DNA from: Escherichia coli
GTDB lineage: Bacteria > Pseudomonadota > Gammaproteobacteria > Enterobacterales > Enterobacteriaceae
DNA: 64,000 nucleotides
Reading direction: 5' to 3' (one strand)
NCBI RefSeq assembly: GCF_044647545.1
Contig: NZ_CP172818.1
Notes under the pieces: model-generated
Told to the model about the DNA's origin: nothing
The model's input: the letters and a program-made list of their open reading frames with translations, nothing else
The model's database searches: none
Translations under genes and position numbers: made by a program
Part shown: one piece after another, positions 8,872-57,135 of the stretch
Layout of the letters: the number at the start of each line of letters is the position of its first letter
Numbering within the stretch: the stretch's first letter is position 1

Positions 8872-8901
8872 TTAACCATTCCCATACAATTAGTTAACCA
8901 A

Positions 8902-8934
8902 AAAGGGGGGATTTTATCTCCCCTTTAATTTTTC
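8902..8934 (+). terminator. Rho-independent terminator after clpX
   Basis: AAGGGGGGA...TCCCCTT hairpin followed by T-rich tract. Confidence 0.65.
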
Positions 8935-8948
8935 CTCTATTCTCGGCG

Positions 8949-8976
8949 TTGAATGTGGGGGAAACATCCCCATATA
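8949..8976 (+). promoter_or_regulatory. sigma32 heat-shock promoter of lon
   Basis: GTTGAATG (-35 like) ... CCCCATATA (-10 like) with correct spacing; matches sigma32 consensus. Confidence 0.7.
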
Positions 8977-9058
8977 CTGACGTACATGTTAATAGATGGC
9001 GTGAAGCACAGTCGTGTCATCTGATTACCTGGCGGAAATTAAACTAAGAGAGAGCTCT

Positions 9059-26630: not shown

Positions 26631-26744
26631 GGGGGCTCTGTTGGTTCTCCCGCAACGCTACTCTGTTTACCAGGTCAGGTCCGGAAGGAAGCAGCCAAGG
26701 CAGATGACGCGTGTGCCGGGATGTAGCTGGCAGGGCCCCCACCC
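26631..26744 (+). ncRNA. ffs: 4.5S RNA (signal recognition particle RNA)
   Basis: 114 nt GGGGGCTCTGTTGGTTCTCCCGCAACGC...GGCAGGGCCCCCACCC matches the E. coli SRP RNA as I recall it; lies in the atl-ybaA intergenic region. Confidence 0.93.
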
Positions 26745-35943: not shown

Positions 35944-36591
35944 ATGGCACGAAAAACCAAACAAGAAGCGCAAGAAACGCGCCAACACATCCTCGATGTG
36001 GCTCTACGTCTTTTCTCACAGCAGGGGGTATCATCCACCTCGCTGGGTGAGATTGCAAAAGCAGCTGGCGTTACGCGCGGTGCAATCTACTGGCATTTTA
36101 AAGACAAGTCGGATTTGTTCAGTGAGATCTGGGAACTGTCAGAATCCAATATTGGTGAACTAGAGCTTGAGTATCAGGCAAAATTCCCTGGCGATCCACT
36201 CTCAGTATTAAGAGAGATATTAATTCATGTTCTTGAATCCACGGTGACAGAAGAACGGCGTCGATTATTGATGGAGATTATATTCTACAAATGCGAATTT
36301 GTCGGAGAAATGGCTGTTGTGCAACAGGCACAACGTAATCTCTGTCTGGAAAGTTATGACCGTATAGAACAAACGTTAAAACATTGTATTGAAGCGAAAA
36401 TGTTGCCTGCGGATTTAATGACGCGTCGCGCAGCAATTATTATGCGCGGCTATATTTCCGGCCTGATGGAAAACTGGCTCTTTGCCCCGCAATCTTTTGA
36501 TCTTAAAAAAGAAGCCCGCGATTACGTCGCCATCTTACTGGAGATGTATCTCCTGTGCCCCACGCTTCGTAATCCTGCCACTAACGAATAA
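35944..36591 (+). CDS. acrR: TetR-family repressor of acrAB
   Basis: 215 aa with N-terminal TetR HTH; recognised as AcrR. Confidence 0.97.
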
Positions 36592-36718: not shown

Positions 36719-39700
36719 ATGACTATGTTCCAGTATTACAAACGATCACGGCATTTTGTTTTTTCAGCATTTATTGCTTTTGTTTTTGTCTTGTTATGCC
36801 AGAACACGGCGTTTGCGCGGGCGTCATCGAATGGTGATCTGCCGACAAAAGCGGACCTGCAGGCACAACTTGACTCACTGAATAAACAAAAAGATCTTTC
36901 TGCTCAGGACAAACTGGTGCAGCAGGATCTGACAGATACATTAGCCACCCTCGATAAAATCGATCGCGTAAAAGAAGAGACAGTTCAGCTACGGCAAAAA
37001 GTCGCTGAAGCGCCGGAAAAAATGCGCCAGGCGACCGCGGCGTTAACAGCACTTAGCGATGTCGATAACGACGAAGAAACGCGCAAAATTCTGAGCACGC
37101 TTTCGTTGCGCCAGCTGGAAACTCGCGTTGCCCAGGCGCTGGACGATTTGCAAAACGCACAAAACGATCTGGCGTCTTATAACAGCCAGCTGGTTTCGTT
37201 ACAGACGCAGCCCGAACGCGTGCAAAATGCGATGTATAACGCTTCGCAGCAGCTGCAACAAATTCGCAGTCGTCTGGACGGGACTGATGTCGGCGAGACT
37301 GCCTTACGTCCCAGCCAGAAAGTGTTAATGCAGGCTCAGCAGGCTTTGCTGAATGCCGAGATTGACCAGCAGCGTAAAAGCCTGGAAGGGAACACCGTCT
37401 TGCAGGATACCTTGCAAAAGCAACGTGATTACGTGACGGCGAACAGCGCCCGTCTGGAGCACCAGTTGCAGCTGTTGCAAGAAGCAGTAAACAGCAAGCG
37501 TCTGACTTTAACCGAAAAAACGGCGCAGGAAGCCGTCTCCCCGGATGAAGCCGCGCGTATTCAGGCTAATCCGCTGGTGAAGCAGGAACTGGAAATTAAC
37601 CAGCAGTTAAGTCAGCGTCTGATTACCGCGACTGAAAACGGTAATCAGTTGATGCAGCAAAACATTAAAGTCAAAAACTGGCTGGAGCGGGCGCTGCAAT
37701 CGGAACGCAATATTAAAGAGCAGATTGCCGTCCTGAAGGGCAGCCTGCTGTTGTCTCGTATCCTTTACCAGCAACAACAAACGCTGCCCTCGGCGGATGA
37801 ACTGGAAAACATGACCAACCGCATCGCGGATTTGCGTCTCGAACAGTTTGAAGTTAACCAGCAGCGTGATGCACTCTTCCAGAGCGATGCGTTCGTCAAC
37901 AAACTGGAAGAAGGTCACACCAACGAAGTCAACAGCGAAGTTCACGATGCGTTATTGCAAGTAGTTGATATGCGTCGCGAATTGCTGGATCAGCTTAACA
38001 AACAGTTGGGTAACCAGCTGATGATGGCCATTAACCTGCAAATCAACCAGCAGCAGTTAATGAGTGTGTCGAAAAACCTGAAATCCATCCTGACTCAGCA
38101 AATCTTTTGGGTGAACAGTAACCGTCCAATGGACTGGGACTGGATCAAAGCGTTCCCGCAAAGCCTGAAAGATGAATTTAAGTCGATGAAAATCACGGTG
38201 AACTGGGAAAAAGCCTGGCCTGCCGTTTTTATCGCTTTCCTCGCCGGTTTGCCGCTGCTGTTGATTGCCGGGCTGATCCACTGGCGTCTGGGCTGGCTGA
38301 AAGCGTATCAACAAAAACTGGCTTCCGCTGTGGGTTCCCTGCGTAACGACAGCCAGCTCAACACACCAAAAGCGATCCTTATCGACCTGATCCGTGCGCT
38401 GCCGGTGTGCCTGATTATTCTCGCGGTTGGCCTGATTCTGTTGACCATGCAGCTCAACATCAGCGAACTGCTATGGTCGTTCAGTAAAAAACTGGCGATT
38501 TTCTGGCTGGTGTTTGGCCTGTGCTGGAAAGTGTTGGAGAAAAACGGCGTTGCCGTGCGTCACTTCGGCATGCCGGAACAGCAGACCAGCCACTGGCGTC
38601 GGCAAATTGTCCGCATCAGTCTCGCATTGCTGCCTATCCATTTCTGGTCTGTGGTGGCAGAACTTTCCCCGCTGCATCTGATGGATGATGTGCTGGGGCA
38701 GGCGATGATTTTCTTCAACTTGCTGCTGATTGCCTTCCTGGTGTGGCCGATGTGCCGCGAAAGCTGGCGTGATAAAGAGTCGCACACCATGCGACTGGTC
38801 ACCATTACCGTACTGTCGATTATCCCGATTGCGTTGATGGTGCTGACCGCCACGGGTTATTTCTACACCACGCTGCGCCTCTCCGGGCGTTGGATTGAAA
38901 CCGTTTATTTGGTGATCATCTGGAACCTGCTGTACCAGACGGTATTGCGCGGCTTAAGCGTAGCGGCGCGGCGTATCGCCTGGCGTCGTGCGCTGGCGCG
39001 TCGGCAGAATCTGGTGAAAGAGGGCGCAGAAGGTGCCGAACCGCCGGAAGAACCCACCATTGCACTGGAGCAAGTTAACCAGCAGACGCTGCGTATTACC
39101 ATGTTGCTGATGTTTGCGCTGTTCGGTGTCATGTTCTGGGCAATTTGGTCCGATTTGATCACCGTGTTCAGCTATCTCGACAGCATTACGCTCTGGCATT
39201 ACAACGGTACTGAAGCTGGTGCTGCGGTGGTGAAAAACGTCACCATGGGCAGTCTGTTGTTTGCGATTATCGCCTCAATGGTGGCCTGGGCGTTGATTCG
39301 CAACCTGCCTGGTTTGCTGGAAGTGCTGGTGCTCTCGCGACTGAATATGCGCCAGGGCGCGTCGTATGCCATTACTACCATCCTTAACTACATCATTATT
39401 GCCGTTGGTGCGATGACGGTGTTCGGATCGCTGGGCGTCTCTTGGGATAAACTCCAGTGGCTGGCAGCAGCATTATCCGTAGGTCTTGGTTTTGGTTTAC
39501 AAGAAATTTTCGGTAACTTCGTCTCCGGTTTGATCATTCTGTTCGAACGTCCGGTGCGCATTGGCGATACGGTAACCATTGGTAGCTTCTCGGGGACGGT
39601 AAGTAAGATCCGTATTCGTGCGACAACGATTACCGATTTCGATCGCAAAGAAGTGATCATCCCGAACAAAGCGTTTGTTACCGAGCGTCTGATCAACTGG

Positions 39701-40081
39701 TCGTTGACTGACACGACTACGCGTCTGGTGATCCGTCTCGGCGTGGCCTATGGCTCCGATCTGGAAAAAGTGCGTAAAGTGTTACTGAAGGCGGCGACTG
39801 AGCACCCAAGGGTGATGCACGAACCAATGCCGGAAGTCTTCTTTACGGCGTTTGGTGCCAGCACGTTGGATCATGAGCTGCGTCTGTATGTGCGTGAACT
39901 GCGTGACCGTAGCCGTACTGTCGATGAGCTGAACCGTACTATCGATCAGCTGTGCCGTGAAAACGACATCAACATTGCCTTTAACCAGCTTGAAGTGCAT
40001 CTGCACAACGAGAAGGGCGATGAGGTGACGGAAGTCAAACGCGACTACAAAGGCGACGATCCGACACCAGCGGTAGGGTAA
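36719..40081 (+). CDS. mscK: Potassium-dependent mechanosensitive channel MscK
   Basis: 1120 aa: signal peptide, long coiled-coil periplasmic domain, multi-TM region, C-terminal MscS-like channel domain. Also known as kefA. Confidence 0.95.
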   Translation: MTMFQYYKRSRHFVFSAFIAFVFVLLCQNTAFARASSNGDLPTKADLQAQLDSLNKQKDLSAQDKLVQQDLTDTLATLDKIDRVKEETVQLRQKVAEAPEKMRQATAALTALSDVDNDEETRKILSTLSLRQLETRVAQALDDLQNAQNDLASYNSQLVSLQTQPERVQNAMYNASQQLQQIRSRLDGTDVGETALRPSQKVLMQAQQALLNAEIDQQRKSLEGNTVLQDTLQKQRDYVTANSARLEHQLQLLQEAVNSKRLTLTEKTAQEAVSPDEAARIQANPLVKQELEINQQLSQRLITATENGNQLMQQNIKVKNWLERALQSERNIKEQIAVLKGSLLLSRILYQQQQTLPSADELENMTNRIADLRLEQFEVNQQRDALFQSDAFVNKLEEGHTNEVNSEVHDALLQVVDMRRELLDQLNKQLGNQLMMAINLQINQQQLMSVSKNLKSILTQQIFWVNSNRPMDWDWIKAFPQSLKDEFKSMKITVNWEKAWPAVFIAFLAGLPLLLIAGLIHWRLGWLKAYQQKLASAVGSLRNDSQLNTPKAILIDLIRALPVCLIILAVGLILLTMQLNISELLWSFSKKLAIFWLVFGLCWKVLEKNGVAVRHFGMPEQQTSHWRRQIVRISLALLPIHFWSVVAELSPLHLMDDVLGQAMIFFNLLLIAFLVWPMCRESWRDKESHTMRLVTITVLSIIPIALMVLTATGYFYTTLRLSGRWIETVYLVIIWNLLYQTVLRGLSVAARRIAWRRALARRQNLVKEGAEGAEPPEEPTIALEQVNQQTLRITMLLMFALFGVMFWAIWSDLITVFSYLDSITLWHYNGTEAGAAVVKNVTMGSLLFAIIASMVAWALIRNLPGLLEVLVLSRLNMRQGASYAITTILNYIIIAVGAMTVFGSLGVSWDKLQWLAAALSVGLGFGLQEIFGNFVSGLIILFERPVRIGDTVTIGSFSGTVSKIRIRATTITDFDRKEVIIPNKAFVTERLINWSLTDTTTRLVIRLGVAYGSDLEKVRKVLLKAATEHPRVMHEPMPEVFFTAFGASTLDHELRLYVRELRDRSRTVDELNRTIDQLCRENDINIAFNQLEVHLHNEKGDEVTEVKRDYKGDDPTPAVG

Positions 40082-40088
40082 GGACAAT

Positions 40089-40120
40089 AAAGGGCGACAT
40101 GATGCGCCCTTTATTTTTTA
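40089..40120. terminator. Bidirectional terminator between mscK (+) and ybaM (-)
   Basis: Hairpin AAGGGCG...CGCCCTT flanked by A-run and T-run; overlaps ybaM stop codon. Confidence 0.75.
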
Positions 40121-40282
40121 CTCGCTTTGTGAAGTCTCATCGCTCTGTAACTTCTTTTCATAATCGCGTTTTACAATATCCAGCGCGCGCAGCACGGTGC
40201 GGGCTGGGATCTGATTTTCTTCCAGCAGCACAATTAAATCGACGGCCAGTTTGACATCGTCGGGGGCATTTTCCAGTGACAT
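40118..40282 (-). CDS. ybaM: Small protein YbaM (DUF2496-like), 54 codons
   Basis: Hand-translated minus-strand [57 protein letters not shown]; below the track's length cutoff; occupies the mscK-priC gap. Confidence 0.75.
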
Positions 40283-40295
40283 ACTCTCTCCATTG

Positions 40296-40823
40296 CTAGC
40301 GGGTTAAACGCGCTAACCTGTTTTCGATTTTTTCCAGCGCATGGCGACACCGCGCCAGGCGCGCTTCATAGGCTTCCACTTCACGATGCAGCGTTTGCTG
40401 TTCCACGAGATCGGTCACCCGCGCCAGGCGGGCTCGACGTTCGGCTACCATCTCACGTAGCCGCCGCTCAAAATCCTGATGCTGAATACGTTTACGCTGC
40501 CAGCGGGCAATTTTCGGTGGTGCGCTATCCCACTCGCGTAGCGACCAGGCTGTGGCTTCACGCGCTATAGCCTCCAGTTGCGCCGCCAGATGTTCTGCCA
40601 GCCAGGCGGCTTGCGGCAGCTGTTGCTGCTCAACCGCATGACGAAGCGCAGCCAGGTTATCGCCTGCCTCATCGAGACAAGCCTGCAGTGTTGTCGCACG
40701 GGTCTGAAAAAGGTGCCTGTCAAAACGGGCACTTAGCGTGGCAAATTGCGCTACCGGGGCACAACGCTGACGCAGCGTGGCGAGCTGTCCTTCCAGTTTT
40801 TCCAGCAGCAGGGTGGTTTTCAC
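40296..40823 (-). CDS. priC: Primosomal replication protein N''
   Basis: 175 aa ORF recognised as PriC. Confidence 0.93.
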
Positions 40824-40892
40824 GATAAGACCTCAATGAAAATGATAATTGTTATGCTAAAGTAGCCACTCTGTAAGCTGACAACACTCAAT

Positions 40893-41270
40893 ATGCAACG
40901 AATCATTTTAATCATCATTGGCTGGCTGGCGGTAGTGCTGGGTACGCTGGGCGTGGTATTACCGGTATTACCGACGACGCCGTTTATCCTGCTGGCGGCC
41001 TGGTGCTTTGCCCGTTCTTCCCCGCGCTTTCACGCCTGGTTGCTGTACCGCTCATGGTTTGGCAGCTATCTACGTTTCTGGCAGAAACATCATGCGATGC
41101 CGCGCGGCGTCAAACCGCGGGCGATTATGCTTATTTTGCTCACGTTTGCCATTTCTCTGTGGTTCGTCCAGATGCCATGGGTGCGCATCATGTTGCTGGT
41201 AATTCTCGCCTGTTTGCTTTTTTATATGTGGCGAATTCCGGTGATTGATGAAAAGCAAGAAAAGCACTGA
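40893..41270 (+). CDS. ybaN: DUF454 family inner membrane protein
   Basis: 125 aa, hydrophobic; recognised as YbaN. Confidence 0.9.
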
Positions 41271-41422
41271 AGCACAACAATCGCAGTTGCAATTATTGCG
41301 TACAGCCAGTACATTCTGGCGTTTTCGAGCACAGGCGCAGGCGGTCAAAGGTTAAACAACTGTTACTTTTGATACGTTTAAAACGCGCCGTGAGTACCAC
41401 CGTAACAAGCAGGCATACACTT

Positions 41423-41974
41423 ATGACCGCGACTGCACAGCAGCTTGAGTATCTCAAAAATAGCATCAAAAGCATTCAGGACTACCCAAAACCCGGCATT
41501 CTTTTCCGCGATGTCACCAGCTTACTGGAAGACCCGAAAGCTTACGCTCTCAGCATCGACTTGCTGGTTGAGCGTTACAAAAATGCGGGCATTACCAAAG
41601 TGGTCGGCACCGAAGCGCGTGGCTTCTTGTTTGGCGCTCCGGTAGCTCTGGGTCTGGGCGTTGGCTTTGTACCGGTCCGTAAACCGGGCAAACTGCCGCG
41701 TGAAACCATCAGTGAAACTTACGACCTGGAATACGGCACCGATCAGCTGGAAATCCACGTTGATGCCATCAAACCGGGCGACAAAGTTCTGGTGGTGGAC
41801 GACCTGCTGGCAACCGGCGGCACTATCGAAGCGACCGTTAAACTGATCCGTCGTCTGGGTGGTGAAGTGGCTGATGCTGCGTTCATTATCAACCTGTTCG
41901 ATCTCGGCGGCGAACAGCGTCTCGAAAAACAGGGCATTACCAGCTACAGCCTTGTTCCGTTCCCGGGCCATTAA
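41423..41974 (+). CDS. apt: Adenine phosphoribosyltransferase
   Basis: 183 aa from [30 protein letters not shown]; PRPP-binding motif [13 protein letters not shown]; track ORF is 5'-extended. Confidence 0.95.
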
Positions 41975-42102: not shown

Positions 42103-44034
42103 ATGAGTTATCAGGTCTTAGCCCGAAAATGGCGCCCACAAACCTTTGCTGACGTCGTCGGCCAGGAACATGTGCTGACCGCACTGGCGAACGGCTTGTC
42201 GTTAGGGCGTATTCATCATGCTTATCTTTTTTCCGGTACCCGTGGCGTCGGAAAAACCTCTATCGCCCGACTGCTGGCGAAGGGGCTAAACTGCGAAACC
42301 GGCATTACCGCGACGCCGTGCGGCGTGTGCGATAACTGTCGTGAAATCGAGCAGGGGCGCTTTGTCGATCTGATTGAAATCGACGCCGCCTCGCGTACCA
42401 AAGTCGAAGATACCCGCGACCTGCTGGATAACGTCCAGTACGCTCCGGCGCGTGGTCGTTTCAAAGTTTATCTCATCGACGAAGTGCATATGCTGTCGCG
42501 TCACAGCTTTAACGCACTGTTAAAAACCCTTGAAGAGCCGCCAGAGCACGTTAAGTTTTTGCTGGCGACGACCGATCCACAGAAATTGCCGGTGACGATT
42601 TTGTCACGCTGTTTGCAATTTCATCTCAAGGCGCTGGATGTCGAGCAAATTCGCCATCAGCTTGAGCACATCCTCAACGAAGAACATATCGCTCACGAGC
42701 CGCGGGCGTTGCAATTACTGGCGCGCGCCGCTGAAGGCAGCCTGCGAGATGCCTTAAGTCTGACCGACCAGGCGATTGCCAGCGGTGACGGCCAGGTTTC
42801 AACCCAGGCGGTCAGTGCGATGCTGGGTACGCTTGACGACGATCAGGCGCTGTCGCTGGTTGAAGCGATGGTCGAGGCCAACGGCGAGCGCGTAATGGCG
42901 CTGATTAATGAAGCCGCTGCCCGTGGTATCGAGTGGGAAGCGTTGCTGGTGGAAATGCTCGGCCTGTTGCATCGTATTGCGATGGTACAACTTTCGCCTG
43001 CTGCACTTGGCAACGACATGGCCGCCATCGAGCTGCGGATGCGTGAACTGGCGCGCACCATACCGCCGACGGATATTCAGCTTTACTATCAGACGCTGTT
43101 GATTGGTCGCAAAGAATTACCGTATGCGCCGGACCGCCGTATGGGCGTTGAGATGACGCTTCTGCGCGCGCTGGCGTTCCATCCACGTATGCCGCTGCCT
43201 GAGCCAGAAGTGCCACGCCAGTCCTTTGCGCCCGTCGCGCCAACGGCAGTAATGACGCCAACCCAGGTGCCGCCGCAACCGCAATCAGCGCCGCAGCAGG
43301 CACCGACTGTACCGCTCCCGGAAACCACCAGCCAGGTGCTGGCGGCGCGCAAGCAGTTGCAGCGCGTGCAGGGAGCAACCAAAGCAAAAAAGAGTGAACC
43401 GGCAGCCGCTACCCGCGCGCGGCCGGTGAATAACGCTGCGCTGGAAAGACTGGCTTCGGTCACCGATCGCGTTCAGGCGCGCCCGGTGCCATCGGCGCTG
43501 GAAAAAGCGCCAGCCAAAAAAGAAGCGTATCGCTGGAAGGCGACCACTCCAGTGATGCAGCAAAAAGAAGTGGTCGCCACGCCGAAGGCGCTGAAAAAAG
43601 CGCTGGAACATGAAAAAACGCCGGAACTGGCGGCGAAGCTGGCGGCAGAAGCCATTGAGCGCGACCCGTGGGCGGCTCAGGTGAGTCAACTTTCGCTACC
43701 AAAACTGGTCGAACAGGTGGCGTTAAATGCCTGGAAAGAGGAGAGCGACAACGCAGTATGTCTGCATTTGCGCTCCTCTCAGCGGCATTTGAACAACCGC
43801 GGCGCACAGCAAAAACTGGCTGAAGCGTTGAGCACGTTAAAAGGTTCAACGGTTGAACTGACTATCGTTGAAGATGATAATCCCGCGGTGCGTACGCCGC
43901 TGGAATGGCGTCAGGCGATATACGAAGAAAAACTTGCGCAGGCGCGCGAGTCCATTATTGCGGATAATAATATTCAGACCCTGCGTCGATTCTTCGATGC
44001 GGAGCTGGATGAAGAAAGTATCCGCCCCATTTGA
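42103..44034 (+). CDS. dnaX: DNA polymerase III subunits tau (full length) and gamma (via -1 frameshift)
   Basis: 643 aa; AAA+ clamp-loader motifs (GTRGVGKTS); the slippery heptamer inside the ORF is listed separately. Confidence 0.97.
   Translation: MSYQVLARKWRPQTFADVVGQEHVLTALANGLSLGRIHHAYLFSGTRGVGKTSIARLLAKGLNCETGITATPCGVCDNCREIEQGRFVDLIEIDAASRTKVEDTRDLLDNVQYAPARGRFKVYLIDEVHMLSRHSFNALLKTLEEPPEHVKFLLATTDPQKLPVTILSRCLQFHLKALDVEQIRHQLEHILNEEHIAHEPRALQLLARAAEGSLRDALSLTDQAIASGDGQVSTQAVSAMLGTLDDDQALSLVEAMVEANGERVMALINEAAARGIEWEALLVEMLGLLHRIAMVQLSPAALGNDMAAIELRMRELARTIPPTDIQLYYQTLLIGRKELPYAPDRRMGVEMTLLRALAFHPRMPLPEPEVPRQSFAPVAPTAVMTPTQVPPQPQSAPQQAPTVPLPETTSQVLAARKQLQRVQGATKAKKSEPAAATRARPVNNAALERLASVTDRVQARPVPSALEKAPAKKEAYRWKATTPVMQQKEVVATPKALKKALEHEKTPELAAKLAAEAIERDPWAAQVSQLSLPKLVEQVALNAWKEESDNAVCLHLRSSQRHLNNRGAQQKLAEALSTLKGSTVELTIVEDDNPAVRTPLEWRQAIYEEKLAQARESIIADNNIQTLRRFFDAELDEESIRPI
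43386..43397 (+). promoter_or_regulatory. dnaX programmed -1 ribosomal frameshift site (A AAA AAG) with -1 frame stop
   Basis: A_AAA_AAG at 43386-43392 in the correct register of the dnaX frame (codons GCA AAA AAG); -1 frame reads AAA AAA GAG TGA; GC-rich structured region immediately downstream. Confidence 0.85.
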
Positions 44035-57051: not shown

Positions 57052-57135
57052 ACACCGTCGCTTAAAGTGACGGCATAATAATAAAAAAATGAAATTCCTC
57101 TTTGACGGGCCAATAGCGATATTGGCCATTTTTTT
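57052..57135 (+). ncRNA. chiX: ChiX small regulatory RNA (Hfq-dependent; MicM/SroB)
   Basis: 84 nt ACACCGTCGCTTAAAGTGACGGCATAATAATAAAAAAATGAAATTCCTCTTTGACGGGCCAATAGCGATATTGGCCATTTTTTT, 5' hairpin plus intrinsic terminator; matches ChiX as I recall it; in the ybaK-ybaP gap. Confidence 0.88.

Follow-up and report, generated by a model that had tools for sequence, protein, structure and literature searches.

A 54-codon open reading frame between mscK and priC of Escherichia coli is the known gene rsmS (ybaM), whose product is a probable accessory of the CsrA pathway

The window analyzed in the present study is a stretch of 64,000 nucleotides of Escherichia coli DNA (assembly GCF_044647545.1, contig NZ_CP172818.1), in which the gap between mscK (36719-40081, plus strand, stop codon at 40079-40081) and priC (40296-40823, minus strand, GTG start) is occupied by a short open reading frame (ORF) at 40118-40282 on the minus strand, referred to hereafter as rsmS (ybaM). 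This ORF consists of 54 codons and a TAA stop codon (40118-40120), and begins with an ATG at 40282-40280. The priC gene, which encodes the primosomal replication protein N'', was found at the same length of 528 nt in the ORF listing and in the RefSeq annotation. A direct reading of the minus strand gave, in order, CGC, the priC stop codon TAG (40298-40296), CAAT, GGAG, AGAGT, and the ATG of rsmS; the two genes on this strand are thus separated by 13 nt, within which the GGAG at 40288-40291 is the Shine-Dalgarno sequence of rsmS, with a 5-nt spacer to the ATG. The mscK gene is convergent with rsmS, and the stop codons of the two are 36 nt apart. The neighboring genes according to the ORF listing and RefSeq are acrR (35944-36591, plus strand) and ybaN (40893-41270, plus strand), with apt and dnaX also nearby.

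An earlier note on this DNA had described a 54-codon ORF on the minus strand with a plausible start that fills the mscK-priC gap and falls below the length threshold of the ORF track, and the coordinates given above agree with it on each of these points. The ORF is absent from the default track because the tool applies a minimum length of 60 aa. More than 15 further ORFs of at least 54 aa in the surrounding 6.5 kb overlap real genes in the ORF listing and are not genes themselves. A length of 54 codons on its own proves little, and it is the comparative evidence described below that lifts the rsmS ORF above chance.

Regarding other parts of the window, the mechanical ORF for apt (41369-41974, plus strand) begins with a TTG and encodes 201 aa; the true start is probably an internal ATG near 41423 because RefSeq annotates apt in the closest genome as a CDS of 552 nt (183 aa). 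Rfam matches above the gathering score were obtained for the sRNA sraA (8892-8987, minus strand), the small SRP RNA (26639-26735, plus strand), the dnaX frameshifting element (43367-43431, plus strand), and the sRNA sroB (57052-57135, plus strand), which is expected for an E. coli-like chromosomal region.

Bidirectional intrinsic terminators between convergent genes of E. coli are a class known from transcript-end mapping, and the 36-nt gap between the stop codons of mscK and rsmS contains a single hairpin that resembles them, with one G+C-rich stem between an A-tract and a T-tract. This hairpin, at 40086-40115 and readable on both strands, has the sequence AATAAAGGGCG-ACATGATG-CGCCCTTTATT and lies 2 nt past the 3' end of rsmS. 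Its predicted folding energy was -22.8 kcal/mol (z -6.7) on the plus strand and -17.2 kcal/mol (z -5.7) on the minus strand, and none of 200 shuffled sequences folded as well. Past the G+C core, the plus strand continues into a T run with 7 U in 8 positions; in contrast to the typical members of the class, the minus strand continues into the interrupted U-tract UUUAUUGU, with 6 U in 8 positions, and the consensus scan called a terminator on the plus strand only. This single hairpin is likely to be an intrinsic terminator common to mscK and rsmS, as predicted from its sequence, and is plausibly a strong terminator for mscK and a weaker one for rsmS. The suggestion in the earlier note that the small ORF is flanked by a bidirectional terminator therefore needs to be narrowed: the hairpin is real and plausible in both directions, but it is one shared hairpin that adjoins only the 3' end of rsmS, and the scan supported it only in the direction of mscK. 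Another terminator-like hairpin followed by a T-run, which lies opposite the 3' end of priC at 40298-40322 on the plus strand, is probably due to chance because the scan found 2 such sites when 1.6 were expected in shuffled sequence.

The arrangement downstream of rsmS varies within E. coli. In K-12-type strains, such as NCCP15648, the region between mscK and rsmS is longer by approximately 170 bases of palindromic repeats of the REP type and contains two separate hairpins, so that the gap of 36 nt with one hairpin in the window (40082-40117) compares with one of approximately 210 nt in the K-12 type (L002:683-893). The coding sequence also differs between the two types at its end: the K-12-type rsmS has 53 codons and ends in ...KKLTRDDEAEK, while that in the window has 54 codons, the last 10 or so of which are different. 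When a 91-nt probe spanning the junction of the compact form was compared with 5426 complete E. coli genomes, 1345 of them, O157:H7 among these, gave a match, and the compact form is thus a common allele present in about a quarter of genomes. None of these 1345 genomes matched the probe exactly, and the best identity was 97.8%; in the aligned example, FDAARGOS_497, the hairpin loop is 2 bases longer than that in the window (40097-40104), and the stem is unaffected. As a separate observation, the REP region that directly follows rsmS was found, in one E. coli genome, to harbor the transposase gene of an IS621 element, a member of the IS110 family (L003:233-1213). IS621 prefers REP sequences, which fits this placement.

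The protein encoded in the window is 100% identical to RefSeq WP_000051144.1, the rsmS product of E. coli FDAARGOS_497, which is annotated as "pleiotropic regulatory protein RsmS" and encoded by a CDS of 165 nt at the same position as in the window. Both of the relevant family models were matched over their entire length. The score for Pfam PF10689 (DUF2496), all 43 positions of which were covered, was 84.6 bits (cut-off, 25), and that for the NCBIfam RsmS equivalog NF008266, with all 46 positions covered, was 94 bits (cut-off, 76). Of 5426 complete E. coli genomes, 5424 contained a match to a 601-nt query around the ORF, and in every record among the matches listed, rsmS was annotated beneath the match. 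Based on these results, we regard it as practically certain that 40118-40282 on the minus strand is a real and already known gene, rsmS, which is routinely annotated, and in this respect the finding is an ordinary one. The earlier note correctly recognized a small gene and named it ybaM; however, ybaM has since been renamed rsmS (PMC6418279) and is no longer a gene of unknown function. The gene in the window shares its family, size class, and conserved core with RsmS/YbaM of Pectobacterium atrosepticum (ECA1172), P. carotovorum, Serratia, and E. coli K-12, and, as in these relatives, it lies downstream of priC and has its own Shine-Dalgarno sequence. The gap between priC and rsmS differs, being 13 nt in the window and 37 nt in Pectobacterium (PMC6418279).

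A scan in which each species was represented by one genome confirmed 367 relatives, and the best 80 of these 367 loci were kept, which include those of Escherichia, Citrobacter, Salmonella, Klebsiella, Raoultella, Enterobacter, Trabulsiella, Morganella, Pantoea, Erwinia, and Tatumella. All 80 of these best loci had the ATG start followed by the pattern M-S/A-L-(E/Q/D/K), and nearly all of them had a GGAG or GGA motif directly upstream. Including the stop codon, the orthologs in this set were 48-64 codons long, except for one outlier of 103 codons. This outlier is the representative of Citrobacter amalonaticus (L062:2501-2812), in which the usual stop codon past the conserved core has been lost and the frame extends accordingly. 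The scan also returned a contig of 320 bp (L063), from an assembly labeled Pseudomonas yangonensis, that contains an Enterobacter-like end of priC and rsmS, and is probably a contamination of that assembly.

Selection was analyzed on an ungapped core of 44 codons in 81 distinct DNA sequences from Enterobacterales. The rsmS frame contained no stop codon in any of the 81 sequences, whereas each of the other five frames was interrupted in 67 to 81 of them. Mean pN and pS in the rsmS frame were 0.142 and 0.638, respectively, giving a ratio of 0.22, against ratios of 0.27 to 3.0 in the other five frames. The distance-corrected dN/dS between the window and other genera was 0.05-0.15 for most comparisons, with a maximum of 0.28, and column entropy at codon positions 1, 2, and 3 was 0.46, 0.25, and 1.24, respectively. 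The value of 0.27 belongs to one antisense frame (frame 2), which had stop codons in 67 of the 81 sequences and owes its low ratio to wobble positions that it has in common with the true frame. The comparison proposed in the earlier note, i.e., conservation of the reading frame and codon substitution across related genomes, thus gave a frame that is conserved throughout, and this pattern marks rsmS as a protein-coding gene under purifying selection.

Two other explanations for the ORF were considered against these data. One is that it is a chance open frame in a spacer from which no protein is made, the DNA being conserved for an RNA element or as the 3' UTR of priC; ORFs of 54 codons are indeed common by chance in the window, but a third-position entropy five times that at the second position, a low pN/pS, a frame that is open in every sequence when all others are interrupted in most, a conserved ATG and Shine-Dalgarno sequence, and family scores above curated cut-offs are all at variance with this explanation. 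A search of the rsmS region for known RNA elements gave no Rfam match at the gathering score or at E <= 1, which also argues against it, as do the clean deletions reported in Pectobacterium and their complementation by the ORF in trans (PMC6418279). We consider a chance ORF to be ruled out by the conservation of the frame and the substitution pattern, at a residual probability that is very small. The other explanation, which is even more improbable, holds that the real gene is the plus-strand ORF at 40099-40254 (51 aa), with the rsmS ORF as its shadow. This ORF is initiated by an ATG and is of similar length in the ORF listing; however, the corresponding frame (antisense frame 3) had stop codons in 79 of 81 orthologs and a pN/pS of 3.0, and the ORF begins within the terminator hairpin and has no RefSeq annotation. 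It was rejected as a shadow ORF antisense to rsmS. The present case illustrates that small genes that are real and functional are lost at a length threshold of approximately 60 codons, and that rsmS is recoverable from conservation alone.

Among the best 80 of 367 loci, the end of priC was located within 150 nt upstream of rsmS on the same strand in 65, and mscK was convergent downstream in 62, which comprise all of the Enterobacteriaceae and Morganella loci with enough flanking sequence. Two of the 15 loci without such a priC end terminate just upstream of rsmS, and the remaining 13, nearly all of which are from Erwiniaceae, have priC upstream at a greater distance. In 9 of these 13 loci, priC and rsmS are separated by a conserved ORF of 81 codons that has the same orientation and stops approximately 9 nt short of the ATG of rsmS (L075:2247-2492, with equivalent positions in L065, L070, L071, L073, L076, L077, L079, and L083). 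The product of this ORF is hydrophobic and glycine-rich, and shows sub-threshold matches to PF04226, the family of small membrane proteins of the GlsB/YeaQ/YmgE type. For Erwiniaceae, this arrangement calls for a qualification of the claim in PMC6418279 that rsmS is "always immediately downstream of priC".

RefSeq likewise annotates rsmS in E. coli downstream of priC and on its strand. An operon of priC and ybaM has been described in E. coli (PMC5778457), a priC insertion has been examined for polarity on ybaM (PMC539235), and the effects of priC insertions in Pectobacterium are due to polarity on rsmS, with only rsmS complementing them (PMC6418279). The gap of 13 nt and the separate Shine-Dalgarno sequence in the window fit co-transcription with priC and either independent or coupled translation. 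The promoter for priC-rsmS was placed upstream of priC by Hobbs (2010), as cited in PMC6418279, and rsmS may accordingly be transcribed together with priC from a promoter that would lie, in the window, in the divergent intergenic region between priC and ybaN (40824-40892, read on the minus strand). This position is put forward from the literature; a consensus scan of the minus strand gave no sigma-70-like site in the priC-ybaN region or inside priC.

The RsmS protein has a predicted mass of 6.1 kDa and a pI of 4.5; its acidic residues (12) outnumber the basic ones (7), and no hydrophobic segment is present. An alignment of 40 orthologs divides it into a conserved core (residues 1-44), with 19 invariant and 7 nearly invariant columns, and a variable acidic tail (residues 45-54), the length of which is between 4 and 18 residues across the orthologs. 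An AlphaFold2 model based on the 40 orthologs (mean pLDDT, 89.8) contained helices at residues 8-22 and 27-53, which are joined by a short turn at a conserved (I/L/V)-P motif, and pLDDT in the tail was approximately 59. The invariant residues (K11-I17, L19-E21, V30, L31, A33, L34, D40, and K44) are distributed along both predicted helices. With high confidence, RsmS is predicted to be a two-helix hairpin with a poorly ordered and fast-evolving tail. A sequence search against solved structures gave no match to RsmS at E <= 10, and neither did a Foldseek search of the model against the PDB, which is uninformative for a helical hairpin of 54 residues. The fold offers no support for a mechanism because neither a structural relative nor a solved structure was found. 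A13V, a change at one of the invariant residues, arose during evolution in the gut (PMC11406977).

Regarding the function of RsmS, the genetics reported in Pectobacterium and Serratia suggest a role in the Csr/Rsm post-transcriptional network. Transposon insertions in rsmS and its clean deletion partly suppressed an rsmB mutant in two Pectobacterium species, with a partial return of exoenzyme, quorum-signal, and carbapenem production after deletion in rsmB mutants, and the single rsmS mutant overproduced the same three products and was hypervirulent (PMC6418279). In Serratia, a mutation in rsmS increased the expression of three CRISPR-Cas systems in the same manner as a mutation in rsmA, rsmA was epistatic to rsmS, and the effect of rsmS was additive with that of pigX (csrD) and largely independent of rsmB (PMC8450108). 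On this basis, RsmS may function as an accessory factor of CsrA (RsmA), an RNA-binding repressor, and would help it to repress target mRNAs by a route bypassing the decoy RNAs CsrB/RsmB, and the loss of RsmS would weaken CsrA-dependent repression. We assign a probability of approximately 0.85 to this account as a whole, i.e., the identity of the gene as rsmS together with the role of its product as a CsrA accessory. Taken separately, the claim that RsmS acts through the CsrA pathway appears probable.

The mechanism by which RsmS may act on CsrA is a point of lower confidence, and direct physical binding to CsrA has, in our estimation, slightly less than an even chance of being correct. A match between E. 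coli YbaM and CsrA in a yeast two-hybrid analysis, as cited in PMC6418279, was a single result from a high-throughput study and was termed unvalidated by the authors who cited it in 2019. The later study in Serratia (PMC8450108) cites PMC6418279 on the interaction of RsmS with CsrA, and PMC6418279 itself contains only this unvalidated match from another study. Altered ybaM mRNA in csrA and csrD mutants of E. coli is also cited in PMC6418279. The ybaM gene was also among the matches of a curli screen of the Keio collection (PMC5745457).

A different explanation is that RsmS produces the same phenotypes through a partner other than CsrA, for example as a small stress protein that affects the cell envelope, or that it acts indirectly on the abundance or stability of CsrA instead of assisting RNA binding. 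The authors of PMC6418279 listed "affects the stability of RsmA" and "an undiscovered pathway" as alternatives, and an E. coli ybaM mutant was disadvantaged under cell-envelope stress (Hobbs, 2010, as cited in PMC6418279), which would be in keeping with a role in the envelope; the ORF of the GlsB/YeaQ/YmgE type that lies between priC and rsmS in Erwiniaceae may be a weak hint in the same direction. Furthermore, both the deletion and the overexpression of rsmS raised enzyme output in Pectobacterium (PMC6418279), and this shift in one direction strains a simple helper model because such a model does not predict that deletion and overexpression act in the same direction. On the other hand, the epistasis in Serratia puts rsmA downstream of rsmS (PMC8450108), the suppression by rsmS mutations is specific to rsmB (PMC6418279), the two-hybrid match with CsrA cited in PMC6418279 exists, and RsmS, which is acidic, soluble-looking, and devoid of a hydrophobic segment, is not itself a membrane protein. 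We therefore regard an action through another partner as rather unlikely, and the CsrA accessory role remains the preferred reading.

Protein partners of CsrA include FliW of Bacillus subtilis and other flagellated bacteria and CesT of enteropathogenic E. coli, which antagonize CsrA and are both larger than RsmS and not simple two-helix hairpins. If the two-hybrid result is correct, RsmS, similar to FliW and CesT, would modulate CsrA without decoy RNAs. In contrast to these antagonists, the genetics suggest that RsmS supports CsrA activity, and it has no detectable relation in sequence or fold to any solved structure. A more far-reaching proposal, in which RsmS is a CsrA-binding enhancer with a fold unlike that of FliW or CesT, and in which the compact and REP alleles could set different mRNA 3' ends and expression levels of rsmS, is tentative and, in our view, doubtful. 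Beyond what the authors of the 2019 study proposed, the window adds only the observation on the alleles.

CsrA/RsmA is a global regulator that, in the relatives of E. coli, governs the expression of CRISPR-Cas as well as virulence and the production of antibiotics, and rsmS would represent a conserved input to it. If RsmS directly enhances CsrA, it would constitute a new class of protein cofactor for the Csr system.
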